From positions 72,165-120,399 of the IMG/VR virus record IMGVR_UViG_3300028805_000076: DNA of 48,235 nt; one strand, 5' to 3'. Positions within the stretch are counted from its first letter, which is position 1; each line of letters opens with the position of its first letter. Origin of the DNA: a virus (Duplodnaviria > Heunggongvirae > Uroviricota > Caudoviricetes). A model generated the notes under the pieces. The model saw nothing but the letters and a program-made list of their open reading frames with translations, searched no databases and was not told where the DNA came from. A program made the position numbers and the translations under genes. Shown here in pieces: positions 9,118-17,023 of the stretch.

Positions 9118-10422
9118 TTATTGTTTTAAAATATCTATTATATCATTTACATTATGAAAACATTTATCACCTAAAAAAGTGTCTTGTTTTTCTTTTGTGA
9201 AATATAAAAGTTGAATATTGTTGTCTTTACAAAATTGTTGTTTTATAATATCATTTTTATGTTGCGAATCAAATCCTTGTTTACCGCCCAAACCATTGAT
9301 AATTTCAAAATGGAATTTTCCTTGACATTCTATTGCAATATTTTTTTGAGGAATAAAAAAATCAAGTTTTAAAGGTAGAACATTTTTTAAACCATTTATA
9401 ACATGCTGAGTTTTATATTCAATTTTATTTTCTTCTAGCGTTAATCTCATTTCTCGTTCTAATTTACTTTCTGAACATGTGGGACATCCGCAACCATTTA
9501 AATGAAGATAATATGATTGATTAAAATTCCCGTGGATAGGACACTTTATATTAATTTTATAATTGCTATTATAAATTGTGCTTTCGATATTATTAACATC
9601 ATAAATATATTTATTGCCGTGAATTTTATTAAATCTTTCAATTAATTCGTTTGTTGTTGGCTTAACTTTTTTATTACATTTTGGGCAACCATTTCCACAT
9701 TGTATTTTTGATGGTGCTGCCATCCATTTATAACCACAAATTAAGCACTTAAACATAATTTTTTCACCCATTGATTTATAATCGTCAATAATTTCTAAAT
9801 GTCTATTTTTAAGATTTGAATCTACTATAAATTCATTCACTTTTTTTTTATGTTTTTCACGAGCACAAAATGGACAACCCTTTTGCAATACTATGTGTTC
9901 ATGAGGTGTTTTTGTAAAAATTCCGTGTTCTTTACAAATAATTTGAATTTTATCATTTGGTGAAGAGTCTTTAACTAAACTATAATCATATAAATCACCA
10001 AATATTTTAACTGCTTCTGAAATTATCATATTTTTTGTTCTAAAATTATCAGAACATTTTGGACAACCTTGCTTTTGATTAATGTGCGAATAGGCAATTT
10101 TTTCAAAATCGCCATGTTTTTTACAAGTAATTATTACTTTATCTGTAGAATTATTACATATACTTTTATCATATGTAAAATTATCACCAAAAATTTCTTT
10201 AGACCATTTTATAAAATTTTTGGTTGTAAATTTTTTATTTTTAGTCCTAATTTTACCATTATAAACATCTTGCGGTAACGCTTCAATATATTCATTTGTA
10301 TATGTATCAAATAAAATAACTTTAGTTCGATTGTTTATGTATATTGTTTTATCGAAAGTAAATCTATCACCATATTTTTCAACACAACGTTTTTCAAATG
10401 TTTCTTGCGTGGTTTTTCTCAT
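9118..10422 (-). CDS. Free-standing putative homing endonuclease (Zn-ribbon-like repeats plus Vsr/DUF559-like nuclease)
   Basis: Four Cys-rich repeats (C..HG.F...H...GCP.C type) and C-terminal LKLDFFIPQKNIAIECQGKFH...DIIKQQFC; same repeat type as 3921-5213. Confidence 0.75.
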   Translation of the reverse strand: MRKTTQETFEKRCVEKYGDRFTFDKTIYINNRTKVILFDTYTNEYIEALPQDVYNGKIRTKNKKFTTKNFIKWSKEIFGDNFTYDKSICNNSTDKVIITCKKHGDFEKIAYSHINQKQGCPKCSDNFRTKNMIISEAVKIFGDLYDYSLVKDSSPNDKIQIICKEHGIFTKTPHEHIVLQKGCPFCAREKHKKKVNEFIVDSNLKNRHLEIIDDYKSMGEKIMFKCLICGYKWMAAPSKIQCGNGCPKCNKKVKPTTNELIERFNKIHGNKYIYDVNNIESTIYNSNYKINIKCPIHGNFNQSYYLHLNGCGCPTCSESKLEREMRLTLEENKIEYKTQHVINGLKNVLPLKLDFFIPQKNIAIECQGKFHFEIINGLGGKQGFDSQHKNDIIKQQFCKDNNIQLLYFTKEKQDTFLGDKCFHNVNDIIDILKQ

Positions 10423-10493
10423 AGAATATCTATTTATATATAAATATATTATTTATAATAATAACAGAATTTTATATAAAAAATAATTACAAA

Positions 10494-13660: not shown

Positions 13661-15370
13661 TCATTTTGTTCTTTTCTTTATTTTATTTAAAACTGAATTC
13701 ATGGATAATACTTTTTCAGTTTTATTTTGTGCTATATTTGAAATTGTAATTGGTTTCTTTCTGTTTTTTTCAATAAAACTTTTAATTGAATCTATATCAG
13801 TAGCTGATTCTGAAAATTTAATTTTTTTCTTTAGACTTTCATATTCAGATACAGACATAATGATGGAATATTTAAGATAATCATCATCATCAATTATTGA
13901 CAAATTGTGTTTTGCCCTAGTAATTGCAACATATTTCAAGTTCCTTTCTTGTTCCTTCTCCCAATCCTTTTCCATTCGCTTTAGGTTAATGTCAAACAAA
14001 GACCAACACAAAATATGTACATTATTGCATTCAAGACCCTTTGCCTTATGAATGGTAGATAATGAAATTCCATCCTTTTCATCATTGTTAAATATCTTGT
14101 CAATCCTTTCAAGCAATTCCGTTCTAGTTTTTAATCCTTCAGACAATATGATTATTGTATTAATGTTGTCTATTAGACTTCTACAAGTTGAGTTGTTAAG
14201 AGCAGTATATATATCACACATTTCCCTATTACATACAAATTCTACTGTCTTGAAAAATTGTCGATATAGCTGTGATATTATACCATCATTTGTCAAAGAC
14301 TGCCCTATGTTATCTGCACTTGTGCCTTCAATAAGTTCAACAATATCCTCATAGCATCCTTTGCCATTCATATGGCATTTCTTACCCATAGCTATTAGGT
14401 TCAAATAAAGTCTAACCAAAGGAGCGTTGTTTCTGCACAGTACCATATCACCATCTTGAATGTTTTCAATCTTGCCGTTAAAATTTATGTTGCCACATAC
14501 ACCGAAACAGTTCCTCTCAATACCAAATACAATTTGGGCAGCAAAGTCAACAATTGAGTCATCACATCTGTAGCAAATTGGAAGTGGCATTGATATTGTG
14601 TTTGGTGTTTTTGACAAATTATCAAACGATTGTGAATCAGCACCAGAAAATGCATATATTGATTGAAATTTATCTCCACAAAATATATATCTTGTACTTA
14701 TCTTTCTACATTTAAGTACAATTTGCTGTTGTGCTATTGACAAGTCTTGCGCTTCATCAACAAATATATAGTCATAACTTGGGAATCTATACGGCAGTAC
14801 ATTTGGCAACCAAACCATATCAGCATAATCTATTGTTAAAATATTTTCTTTGCCCCATTTTAGAAGCTTTTTTGTCACTTCCATTTCATCATACAATGGC
14901 ATTATTCCAAACTTATTTGCTGTCAATGCAATTCCTTTTATACCATCACATAAATTGTTTCTACAAAAAATCAGCAAGTGCTTTATATTTGATATATATT
15001 TTTGCTGCTCGTTGTTTGACATTTTATAGAAATATTCAGTATATTTTTCAATATTTGAATATAGTTCCTTATGATACTTGAACTCATCTACAGAAGGATT
15101 AAAATCGTTATTCATTTTAATTATACTGTATCCCAAACTGTGAATAGTAGAAATTTTCAAGTTTTCAATACCAACTGATTTTTTTGTTATATCATTGATA
15201 ATATCTTTATTGAATGCACAGTAAAATTTTGTAGTATCGGCTCCTATCGCTTTCATTATCTCAATTAGCGTTGAAGTCTTACCACAACCAGCATAAGCTT
15301 GTATCATAATATTCCCATTTCCATTGACAACTTTGTCTATAATTTCCTTTTGATATAAACTTAATTCCAT
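13661..15370 (-). CDS. UvrD/Rep-like superfamily 1 helicase
   Basis: Walker A AYAGCGKT, Walker B VDEAQD, GDKFQSIYAFSGA, STIHKAKGLE, YVAITRAK. ATG at 15370 (the track start is TTG15397). Confidence 0.92.
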   Translation of the reverse strand: MELSLYQKEIIDKVVNGNGNIMIQAYAGCGKTSTLIEIMKAIGADTTKFYCAFNKDIINDITKKSVGIENLKISTIHSLGYSIIKMNNDFNPSVDEFKYHKELYSNIEKYTEYFYKMSNNEQQKYISNIKHLLIFCRNNLCDGIKGIALTANKFGIMPLYDEMEVTKKLLKWGKENILTIDYADMVWLPNVLPYRFPSYDYIFVDEAQDLSIAQQQIVLKCRKISTRYIFCGDKFQSIYAFSGADSQSFDNLSKTPNTISMPLPICYRCDDSIVDFAAQIVFGIERNCFGVCGNINFNGKIENIQDGDMVLCRNNAPLVRLYLNLIAMGKKCHMNGKGCYEDIVELIEGTSADNIGQSLTNDGIISQLYRQFFKTVEFVCNREMCDIYTALNNSTCRSLIDNINTIIILSEGLKTRTELLERIDKIFNNDEKDGISLSTIHKAKGLECNNVHILCWSLFDINLKRMEKDWEKEQERNLKYVAITRAKHNLSIIDDDDYLKYSIIMSVSEYESLKKKIKFSESATDIDSIKSFIEKNRKKPITISNIAQNKTEKVLSMNSVLNKIKKRTK

Positions 15371-15423
15371 TTCAAATGTTAAAATATTATAATACAATTA
15401 TATGTAAAATAATTTACAAATAA

Positions 15424-15464
15424 AAAAAAATCTCATACAAGCTGAACTTGTATGAGATTTTTTT
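15424..15464 (-). terminator. Intrinsic terminator ending the 16897-15658 transcript
   Basis: Perfect 18-bp inverted repeat aaaaaaatctcatacaag / cttgtatgagattttttt. Confidence 0.9.
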
Positions 15465-15490
15465 GTCGAGAATAACCGTATATAAAATTA

Positions 15491-15634
15491 TAATAAAATC
15501 TATGATTCTACTACATTTTATTTCTTGCTTCAACGAAACATTGCTTTTTAGGAACATAATGTTCGGTCATCCGCAGTGGGTTTCTCCACAAGCGTAAATT
15601 CGGCAGTACGGCTACCTATTTTTTATTAGAATAT
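15491..15634 (-). ncRNA. TnpB-associated omegaRNA-like / transposon right-end remnant without tnpB CDS
   Basis: Minus strand ataggtagccgtactgccgaatttacgcttgtggagaaacccactgcggatgaccgaacattatgttcctaaaaagcaatgtttcgttgaagcaagaa translates as IGSRTAEFTLVEKPTADDR, resembling the C-terminal tail of phage TnpB ORFs that overlaps the omegaRNA (recalled similarity). Several stem-loops are present, and upstream codons are broken by stops. Confidence 0.55.
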
Positions 15635-15657
15635 GTGTTAACTGTTACAAACCCTAA

Positions 15658-16368
15658 TTAGGCAAGAGCGCTCTTAATAGCGTTTACCAAAGTTGGGTTG
15701 TTCTTCAAGCTGTTGATAAGCTGATTGAAGTAACGCTGTGCATCGTCATCACCGTCATTAGCGAAACAAGACTCGGTAATTGGCTCTGACTGTTCAGCCT
15801 TTTCTCGCAGCTTCTGCCCAACAAACTCGATAATTTCACCCCTATCGGCATTTTCCAAGTCGATTTCACCATCCCATCCTTCCTCAACTACAAGATGCAC
15901 AAGCTCCTTGCGGTTAAGAGTCTCGATGTTAATAGCCTCTTCGGATGCTTCCTCACAAGAAGGCTGTTCAACAGCGTCCTTAGGAAGGAAACGACCATGA
16001 GCATCACGCTTTGGTGTAGAAGGTACGGTCTTTGGGGTGGTTGTACGCTTCGTAGCAGTTGCCAACTTCGATGCTGGACGCTTTTCTGAAGCAGTACCTT
16101 GTACATGTCCCTTCTCGATTTCATCCATCGACATAACAACCACGGTCAGACCAAATGCTGTGAGTACGCTAAGATACGTAGCGAGTGAAACATTGGTCTT
16201 GTTAAGAACGTTATTTACCTCACTAACCGATACGCCAAGCATATCTGCTACTCCCCTAGTGGTGAGAGATTGCTCACGCATAATGGTCTTAACCCTCTCA
16301 CACACATCGTTGAGAGCTTGCTGTGTCAATGAGCGACACGCGGCAAGAAACTGATTCTTATTTTTCAT
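15658..16368 (-). CDS. XRE/Cro-like helix-turn-helix protein with C-terminal extension
   Basis: LTTRGVADMLGVSVSEVNNVLNKTNVSLATYLSVLTAFG fits an HTH_3-type pattern; higher GC than flanking genes. Confidence 0.7.
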   Translation of the reverse strand: MKNKNQFLAACRSLTQQALNDVCERVKTIMREQSLTTRGVADMLGVSVSEVNNVLNKTNVSLATYLSVLTAFGLTVVVMSMDEIEKGHVQGTASEKRPASKLATATKRTTTPKTVPSTPKRDAHGRFLPKDAVEQPSCEEASEEAINIETLNRKELVHLVVEEGWDGEIDLENADRGEIIEFVGQKLREKAEQSEPITESCFANDGDDDAQRYFNQLINSLKNNPTLVNAIKSALA

Positions 16369-16415
16369 TTGTTTTAAAAAAAATATAATTGTTAAACAAT
16401 ACGTAAATTCTTGTT

Positions 16416-16444
16416 AATATCTTGGCTTATAAAGCCAAGATATT
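16416..16444. repeat. 13-bp perfect inverted repeat between the two GC-rich genes, with no U-tract
   Basis: aatatcttggctt-ata-aagccaagatatt. Confidence 0.8.
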
Positions 16445-16465
16445 TAAAGTAGAGGCAATCAGCTA

Positions 16466-16897
16466 TTAAGGAAGCTGAAAGATTGGCTCACCGAAGAGTG
16501 TGTGGTCAATAACCTTTGCACCTACTGGTACACGTCCTTCACACCACTTAAGCTCACGAGTCTCTGTGCGAGTAGCACGAGGTGCACAAGTTGCACGAAC
16601 TGTGCGTGTCTCACAAGGAACGGTTTCGGTGATAGGTCCGCGATTTGCCCAATCGCAAGCCTTTGCGGCCTTTTCAAGGTTGCGGTACTTGCCCATATCC
16701 TCGTTGAACTTGATTGTTCCGCGAGTGGTGTAAGCGTAGTTGCTACGAAGTGGCTTGTCCACTTGTACACAGATTCCATCTGGCTCTCTTTCATCACGGA
16801 CAGCCCTACGTGTCTCACGGCAGCAAGAAGTATGCGTTGGAACTTCCTCAACTTCTACGGTAAGTACGATGCCACCAAAATCAAAAGTCTTCTTCAT
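16466..16897 (-). CDS. Hypothetical protein (143 aa)
   Basis: ATG16897 MKKTFDFGG follows an A/C-rich leader (aaacacaatcaaacg). The track's longer N-terminus is AT-rich promoter DNA. Confidence 0.7.
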   Translation of the reverse strand: MKKTFDFGGIVLTVEVEEVPTHTSCCRETRRAVRDEREPDGICVQVDKPLRSNYAYTTRGTIKFNEDMGKYRNLEKAAKACDWANRGPITETVPCETRTVRATCAPRATRTETRELKWCEGRVPVGAKVIDHTLFGEPIFQLP

Positions 16898-17023
16898 CGT
16901 TTGATTGTGTTTGTTTGTGAATAATTTAGTTATTAATTCTCGTTGTTCTTTTGTTCTGTTACGATTATATAGAAGAAAATCGAAAAACAAAAAAAACTTG
17001 TTGTTAAAAAATGTTAAACATTG

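Follow-up and report, generated by a model that had tools for sequence, protein, structure and literature searches.

Probable protein-less IS607-family mini element with an omegaRNA scaffold behind an HTH gene of a jumbo phage

Introduction

What is the origin, and what might be the role, of the structured segment that follows the stop codon of an HTH gene (15658–15660, minus strand) in a jumbo-phage genome? The segment lies in a 48,235-nt stretch of viral DNA, referred to here as the window, which comes from a 120-kb IMG/VR virus record with a CheckV completeness of 32%. The original prediction, made from this DNA alone, described it as a TnpB omegaRNA-like scaffold that was either a decayed transposon end or a stand-alone guide RNA retained by the phage. 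For comparison we used related viral genomes, including a 387.5-kb record rated complete (G001), whose identity to the window is 98–99% across 12.4 kb of compared sequence. We conclude that the segment is very probably a non-autonomous, protein-less mini element of the IS607 family, MITE/PATE-like in character, for which an origin, a mode of movement, a read-through scaffold and possible homing are proposed below. The features of the locus are listed in Table 1.

Table 1. Features of the mini element and its surroundings in the window
Feature	Position	Strand	Basis
XRE-type HTH gene (236 aa), neighbour outside the element	15658–16368	minus	Weak HTH_3 match; present without the element in L026 and L027
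Intrinsic terminator of the HTH gene	15415–15464	minus	19-bp stem (15464–15424) and T-run
Predicted guide, flank TTATTCTCGACAAAAAAATC	15456–15475	minus	All copies share homology up to ...ACGG(T)
Miniature IS607-family element (insert), 176 bp	15476–15651	minus	Empty sites and repeat boundaries
Target/TAM-like motif AGGG adjoining the 5' side of the left end, with core GG at 15653–15652	15652–15655	minus	NGGG at all seven family sites
Left-end remnant TTTGTAACAGTTAACACATATTCTAATAAAA	15621–15651	minus	89–91% match to full-length left ends (L010:2819–2853, L095:2686–2712)
Right-end part, a complete omegaRNA scaffold with terminus ...TATATACGG	15476–15620	minus	93–96% identity to L010 tnpB 3' end/right end; alignment and covariation
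tnpB remnant, last 23 codons and stop	15548–15619	minus	tblastn to TnpB residues 377–399
Helix 1 (GGUA ... UGCC)	15602–15616	minus	Covarying pairs, columns 4–7/15–18
Nested long-range helices 2–4	15524–15592	minus	Alignment and covariation
Helix 2, CUUGU with GCAAG	15592–15588 with 15528–15524	minus	
Helix 3, GAAAC with GUUUC	15584–15580 with 15539–15535	minus	
Helix 4, CUGC with GCAA, one C-A mismatch in the window copy	15576–15573 with 15544–15541	minus	
Variable hairpin GAACA-UUA-UGUUC	15552–15564	minus	Present in relatives with different stem sequences
3' hairpin AAUAAAAU...AUUUUAUU (DNA AATAAAAT...ATTTTATT), 16 nt before the right-end tip	15492–15522	minus	Equivalent in relatives with different sequence

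Homology to the 3' ends of tnpB genes

The closest tnpB-linked relative of the segment was found on a 136-kb bovine-gut viral contig (L010), with whose tnpB 3' end and right end it shares 93–96% identity, an in-frame 23-codon tail included. This tail, IGSRTAEFTLVEKPTADDRTLCS followed by its stop codon (15619–15548, minus strand), has TAA stops on both sides and corresponds to residues 377–399 of the Pfam-verified L010 TnpB (91% identity by tblastn), in agreement with the originally noted resemblance to the C-terminal tail of phage TnpB. The L010 tnpB ORF contains the Pfam domains PF12323, PF01385 and PF07282 and reads through the scaffold core to its C-terminus (...IIGSRTTEFTLVEKPTVDDRTLCS). 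The L010 TnpB aligns with ISDra2 TnpB over the whole length (E 2e-54) and possesses both the RuvC D/E/D motifs and a zinc finger.

A blastn search against phage records gave matches in Prevotella Lak megaphages only, where the match starts ~15 nt past the stop codon of 376–377-aa ORFs bearing all TnpB hallmarks. Scanning IMG/VR with a 21-nt scaffold core (CCGAATTTANGCTTGTGGAGA) returned 21 loci, about half of them directly behind a tnpB ORF. The same core also lies behind tnpB genes of cyanobacteria, Firmicutes, Bacteroidales and archaea, and is uninformative on the host because it is found in bacteria and archaea of many phyla. A comparison with omegaRNA covariance models had been proposed together with the original prediction; the Rfam search, at gathering and E-value thresholds, gave no match to an omegaRNA or IS605-orfB family, only sub-threshold terminator look-alikes such as SpF36. 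The resemblance is real, since both the segment and its coding tail are homologous to the tnpB 3' ends of L010 and the Lak phages. In Lak-like and rumen jumbo phages, judged by these alignments, the element has its homologue in the omegaRNA region of bona fide tnpB genes.

A 176-bp insertion with copies and empty sites

The element consists of ~31 bp of left end (LE) fused directly to the final ~145 bp of right end (RE). The 5' 31–35 nt of the repeat (GGGTTTGTAACAGTTAACACATATTCTAATAAAA) show no alignment with tnpB; its first 34–35 nt are 91% identical to the left end of L010 and 89% identical to that of L095, a 221-kb contig. The LE/RE junction sits in an AATAA-type microhomology, and no residual tnpB sequence was found in the element beyond the 23 codons. 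Because GG(T) is present at both junctions, the register of the element is ambiguous by ±2–3 nt.

Exactly one LE/RE junction is common to three copies: copy A in the window; copy B, a second occurrence in the 120-kb record that is 95–97% identical to copy A, with homology stopping sharply on both sides; and copy C, at a third locus, found in G001 and outside the 120-kb piece. Copies with different 3' tails had been named as something to look for, and these copies indeed have a different flank each. In G001 both sites are empty: site B reads ...ACAGTGGGGTAATAATC..., exactly 176 bp shorter than its filled counterpart, and site A (L026) reads ...CCTAATTAGGACTATTCTCGAC... with the same terminator behind it, as it also does in L027. 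Contigs from two bovine-gut DNA runs belonging to different studies bridge site A without the element. Bovine run X5 reads TAATTAGGGT/TATTCTC (TAATTAGGGT/TATTCTCAAC), which is the predicted pre-insertion site bar one flank substitution (CAAC for CGAC), and the empty-site allele of G001 is 2 nt off the predicted site at the junction. The empty alleles of site A, otherwise conserved, vary in the 4 nt at 15652–15655, where three alleles were seen, namely GGGT (X5), GGAC (G001 and L027) and CGGC (bovine X6); this variation could reflect escape at the TAM/core, footprints of excision or chance. Assembly unitigs of a sheep-gut RNA library end precisely at 15475 and 15654, where they lead into at least three different flanks.

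The occurrence of one LE–RE fusion at three loci, together with precise empty sites in near-identical relatives, identifies the element as a mobile non-autonomous mini element, and the distribution of its filled and empty sites indicates that it has recently been mobile within the phage lineage. Of the hallmarks of MITEs and PATEs, we found both transposon ends, zero coding capacity, several copies at unrelated loci and empty sites, while inspection of the two end sequences of the mini element revealed no terminal inverted repeat. For this reason, and because it comes from a serine-recombinase lineage, we call it MITE/PATE-like and not a strict member of either group. At L002:650–723, in the phage's own genome but outside the window, copy B was seen to precede a tRNA-Gln(UUG) gene of the same strand by ~780 nt.

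Full-length relatives with a serine transposase

A MerR-type HTH joined to a Resolvase domain is the architecture of IS607 serine transposases. The L010 element contains a 73-aa ORF, a 105-aa MerR/HTH_17 ORF overlapping the start of tnpB, and tnpB itself; the first ~54 residues of the 105-aa ORF share 91–93% identity with the HTH at the N-terminus of MerR+Resolvase proteins of ~200 aa. An intact element, orf73 – tnpA_S (199 aa, MerR+PF00239) – tnpB (378 aa), is present in L095, with ends that correspond to those of the mini element: ATGGG/TAAATAACAGTTAAC... on the left and ...TTTTATATACGG/C on the right. The left end of L010 lies ~630 nt upstream of tnpB, and the equivalent sequence in L020 lies ~110 nt upstream of tnpB. 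All seven left ends are preceded by NGGG (TTAGGG, GTGGGG, GTTGGG, TTTGGG, TAAGGG twice and ATGGG), the terminus of the right end is ...ACGG, and a filled site is exactly 176 bp longer than an empty one. IS607 elements have a strict GG core dinucleotide and a 5'-TGGG-3' target motif that equals the TnpB TAM, and produce no target duplication (Zedaveinyte et al., 10.1101/2023.11.20.567912). On the strength of the MerR+Resolvase genes of L010 and L095, the matching L095 ends, the NGGG sites and the ACGG right end, we assign the mini element by sequence to the IS607 lineage (orf73 – tnpA_S – tnpB), its serine TnpA being known from relatives and the window element itself being gene-less.

An assignment to IS605 (Y1) was also considered. 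The closest TnpA-linked TnpB inside one relative contig, that of G003 (42% identity), adjoins a Y1 fragment, and hairpins can be drawn at the ends of the element. The choice between IS605 and IS607 would be ambiguous without the L010 HTH match and the L095 element, and it was the MerR+Resolvase and L095 evidence that ruled IS605 out.

Further deletions were observed among the relatives. The tnpA_S gene of L010 (L010:3142–3459) is truncated to 105 aa, with the HTH kept and the catalytic domain lost, so that the L010 element is itself non-autonomous. The same IS607 lineage independently gave rise to a ~460-bp deletion derivative on a Paludibacteraceae MAG contig from yak rumen (L068:6873–7331), in which the left end is followed by 28 codons from the start of orf73, the last ~50 codons of tnpB and the right end.

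A covarying RNA scaffold

A consensus fold was computed with alifold from 15 distinct scaffolds. It contains four helices with 18 pairs in total (columns 4–7/15–18, CUUGU/ACAAG, GAAAC/GUUUC and CUGU/GCAG). Paired cells amounted to 97%, compared with 83.5% in shuffles and 36–61% when the partners were slid, and the covariation score was 0.396, compared with 0.148 in shuffles and at most 0.129 with slid partners. Compensatory changes occur in half of the pairs (9/18), and not one of 500 shuffles attained the observed values. The variable hairpin and the 3' hairpin are present in all scaffold sequences, with stems that differ in sequence; the former is missing from the consensus because its region aligns with gaps. 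The covarying fold and the homology to tnpB 3' ends bear out the initial description of the segment as a TnpB omegaRNA-like scaffold. The hairpins drawn at that time fared unequally: GAACA-TTA-TGTTC (15564–15552) and the hairpin at 15522–15492 are present, whereas GTGG-AGAAAC-CCAC occurs only in this copy and clashes with covarying helix 3.

The window copy keeps 17 of the 18 pairs, the exception being the C-A mismatch 15576/15541, and has one change at a column that is invariant in tnpB-linked copies. Copies B and C also have one such change each, that of copy C falling in the invariant core. Because the differences among copies are so few, these substitutions are compatible with young copies drifting neutrally rather than with selection on the RNA. 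Folding of 15420–15660 gave z = -6.3 against shuffles, with the terminator contributing much of the score.

Flanking sequence, read-through and partner genes

All copies diverge right after ...TATATACGG(T), and the flank is different at each copy. On the TnpB paradigm, the flank that begins at 15475, where copy homology ends, would be the guide, in place of the last 15–25 nt of the segment that had been suggested. Accordingly placed boundaries also divide the ~26 nt originally singled out before the terminator: their first 16 nt (ATAATTTTATATACGG) still belong to the transposon right end, and only the sequence past ...ACGG is flank. The last 9 nt of the predicted guide form the 5' arm of the terminator. 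An identical terminator follows the HTH stop codon in uninserted relatives, and the terminator is therefore older than the insertion.

Full copies have a promoter-like region ahead of orf73; this is missing from the mini element, so that its scaffold would be transcribable only by read-through, here from the HTH gene. Inspection of the 31-bp left end by eye for a Bacteroidota-type promoter gave only a weak partial match, and a sigma-70-like match inside the scaffold (15533–15505, 9/12) was within shuffle expectation. In two sheep metatranscriptome runs from one sample, the element is contained in contigs at 4–8x the depth of the HTH gene, which is explained by the presence of several copies; a discrete RNA is not apparent from these contigs, which are silent on transcript ends, strand and level. 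The same two runs gave no cover of 15250–15474. They do not appear among the runs listed as containing the L010-type tnpB, a listing in which omission does not imply absence.

The statement in the original prediction that the window holds no tnpB was confirmed and extends to the 120-kb record (32% complete). A search for tnpB elsewhere in the genome, also proposed there, found none in that record, and the complete 387-kb G001 has neither a tnpB nor a TldR homologue; G001 gave a 29-bit PF07282 match, which did not hold up in a protein-level TnpB search. No tnpA (resolvase or Y1) was found in the 120-kb record or in G001. The nearest tnpB-bearing phages, G002 and G003, are distant, with 66–78% identity in a few segments. 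Since neither tnpB nor tnpA is present in G001 or the 120-kb piece, any partner must come from a co-infecting phage or the host, and the scaffold, if used at all, would have to be loaded in trans.

Proposed origin and alternative explanations

We propose that the mini element derives from a full-length transposon with the order LE – orf73 – serine-recombinase tnpA – tnpB – omegaRNA/RE. One internal deletion between AATAA microhomologies would have joined ~31 bp of LE to the last ~145 bp of RE, removing all genes and the promoter region of the element while keeping both recombination ends and the whole scaffold. The resulting mini element would have moved at least twice in the phage lineage, into NGGG sites by GG-core serine recombination, with a TnpA acting in trans from the host or from a co-infecting phage. 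The window copy would have landed in sense orientation between the stop codon of the HTH gene and its terminator, where read-through from the HTH gene would produce the scaffold together with flank and end at the pre-existing terminator. The guide of this omegaRNA (TTATTCTCGAC...) would match the uninserted allele of its own site, and a cognate nuclease-type TnpB in the cell could load the RNA and cut AGGG-flanked empty alleles, so that the element would tend to be retained or copied (homing). The steps of trans-mobilisation, transcription, TnpB loading and cleavage are modelled on published TnpB and IS607 systems.

More speculatively, mini elements of this kind might act as portable guide cassettes in phage-versus-phage conflict, the read-through omegaRNA directing TnpB to uninserted alleles of related phages, a role that we regard as rather unlikely. 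If it were true, in the presence of a co-infecting TnpB-carrying jumbo phage or an IS-bearing host, related phages would be converted or excluded in what would amount to a gene drive without a nuclease of its own, and the 4-nt variation at the empty site (GGGT, GGAC, CGGC) would be the footprint of TAM escape.

Both options of the original prediction were weighed against the mini element. A domesticated stand-alone guide RNA, kept by the phage and loaded by a TnpB or a nuclease-dead TldR-type protein encoded elsewhere for regulation or attack on competitors, would agree with a scaffold that is nearly intact, oriented in sense behind a transcribed gene and ending at a terminator, and orphan scaffolds with promoter-like sequence upstream do occur in other viral contigs. 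However, the insertion is polymorphic among genomes that are 98–99% identical, being absent from close relatives with the same HTH gene and terminator, and its guide is mere local flank that differs at each copy. Moreover, the left end is retained, for which a domesticated guide gene would have no need, the orphan copies contain disruptive substitutions, and the complete relative is without a TnpB or TldR homologue. We consider a retained guide RNA improbable. A decayed transposon end, that is, a solo right end left by in-situ decay of a full-length tnpB transposon behind the HTH gene, would account for a C-terminal tnpB remnant with stops upstream, and right ends without a left end exist elsewhere (L005). 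Here, however, the scaffold carries a ~31-bp left end, joined to it at the same junction at three loci, the empty sites are precise to the 176 bp, and no tnpB residue is found beyond the 23 codons, which makes decay in place very improbable.

The possibility that the segment has no relation to transposition, and is either a cis-acting 3'-UTR element of the HTH gene (for stability, attenuation or as a terminator module) or a 47-aa ORF (15414–15557), has hardly any probability in our view. The strong predicted folding (z = -6.3) that would speak for a cis-acting element comes largely from the terminator, whereas relatives with the same gene and terminator lack the segment and its sequence is that of a transposon end; the 47-aa ORF, for its part, spans the boundary between scaffold and flank.

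Relation to known systems

The mobile mini element can be compared with several described systems. Protein-less PATE-like IS200/IS605 elements that encode omegaRNAs for use in trans are known from Geobacillus stearothermophilus (Meers et al., 10.1101/2023.03.14.532601). Like these, the window element has both ends, no ORF, an omegaRNA scaffold at the right end and multiple copies, and would need both TnpA and TnpB in trans. PATE-like elements depend on a Y1 (HUH) TnpA and have ssDNA hairpin ends, whereas the window element belongs to a serine-recombinase lineage, has a GG core and no defining palindromic ends, and resides in jumbo-phage genomes, with partner genes not found in the complete relative. 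With IS607 elements such as CboIStron of Clostridium botulinum (10.1101/2023.11.20.567912), it shares an NGGG/TGGG target-TAM, GG at both junctions, the lack of target duplication, an omegaRNA overlapping both the 3' end of tnpB and the right end, and full-length relatives with a MerR-HTH+Resolvase TnpA upstream of tnpB; in contrast to them, it is gene-less (176 bp), it contains no group I intron, and its full-length relatives carry the additional 73-aa ORF. The likeness to the ISDra2 TnpB–omegaRNA complex (PDB 8exa/8h1j) is one of protein and arrangement: the partner TnpB aligns over its whole length with the catalytic motifs, and the scaffold lies 5' of a flank-derived guide. ISDra2 differs in its TAM (TTGAT) and its IS200/IS605 transposase. 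TldR-associated guide RNAs (10.1101/2023.11.30.569447) likewise use a TnpB-type scaffold away from a transposase, but at TldR loci a nuclease-dead protein adjoins a conserved, promoter-aimed guide, neither of which is seen at the window element.

The window element is thus of the PATE-like kind already known in IS605, here found in the IS607 lineage within jumbo phages. Our literature search found no description of a protein-less, omegaRNA-bearing IS607 mini element in jumbo phages. The window element shows that TnpB-type transposons have spawned gene-less, still-mobile derivatives in giant rumen phages, in which the full scaffold is kept while nuclease and transposase are located elsewhere. 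Such phage populations would provide a natural setting in which to test whether omegaRNAs act in trans and whether allele frequencies between co-infecting phages are influenced by RNA-guided homing. For annotation, the analysis offers an explanation for a puzzling structured 3'-UTR and gives an IS607 lineage without an Rfam model its exact ends, target motif and fold.

Additional observations

Orphan scaffolds of other types were encountered in the viral contigs. Six contigs (L006, L009, L011, L014, L021 and L025) share one and the same orphan omegaRNA scaffold, which belongs to a different subgroup and has a TTGACA...TATAGT-like sequence upstream; no tnpB was found in the ~1–7.7 kb upstream at five of the six loci, L009 covering only ~0.5 kb. 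From its sequence context, this orphan is possibly a self-transcribed stand-alone scaffold. In four Lak-like contigs of 314–448 kb (L007, L013, L015 and L018), ~45 nt of the upstream flank of the orphan scaffold (AAGGATAAGCAAGAAG..AAATTTAAT.GTTTAA) recur directly after the right end, so that the would-be guide matches sequence just upstream of its own scaffold.

Within the window, positions 15500–16900 form a GC-rich island (45–52%, compared with ~30% around it) that covers the HTH gene and an unannotated ORF (~16469–16837, no Pfam match). In a relative with which the genome otherwise shares 98–99% identity, the HTH protein reaches only 93%. Positions 9118–10422 (minus strand) encode a 434-aa ORF with DUF4379 treble-clef and DUF723 zinc-finger modules, in which an in-frame 489-nt (163-codon) segment (~9313–9788) is missing in the 98–99% identical G001. 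The sequence upstream of this ORF (10425–10490, minus strand) is 80% identical over 65 nt to that upstream of orf73 in L010 (L010:2866–2928), which suggests that an IS of the L010 type uses a phage-type promoter or leader.
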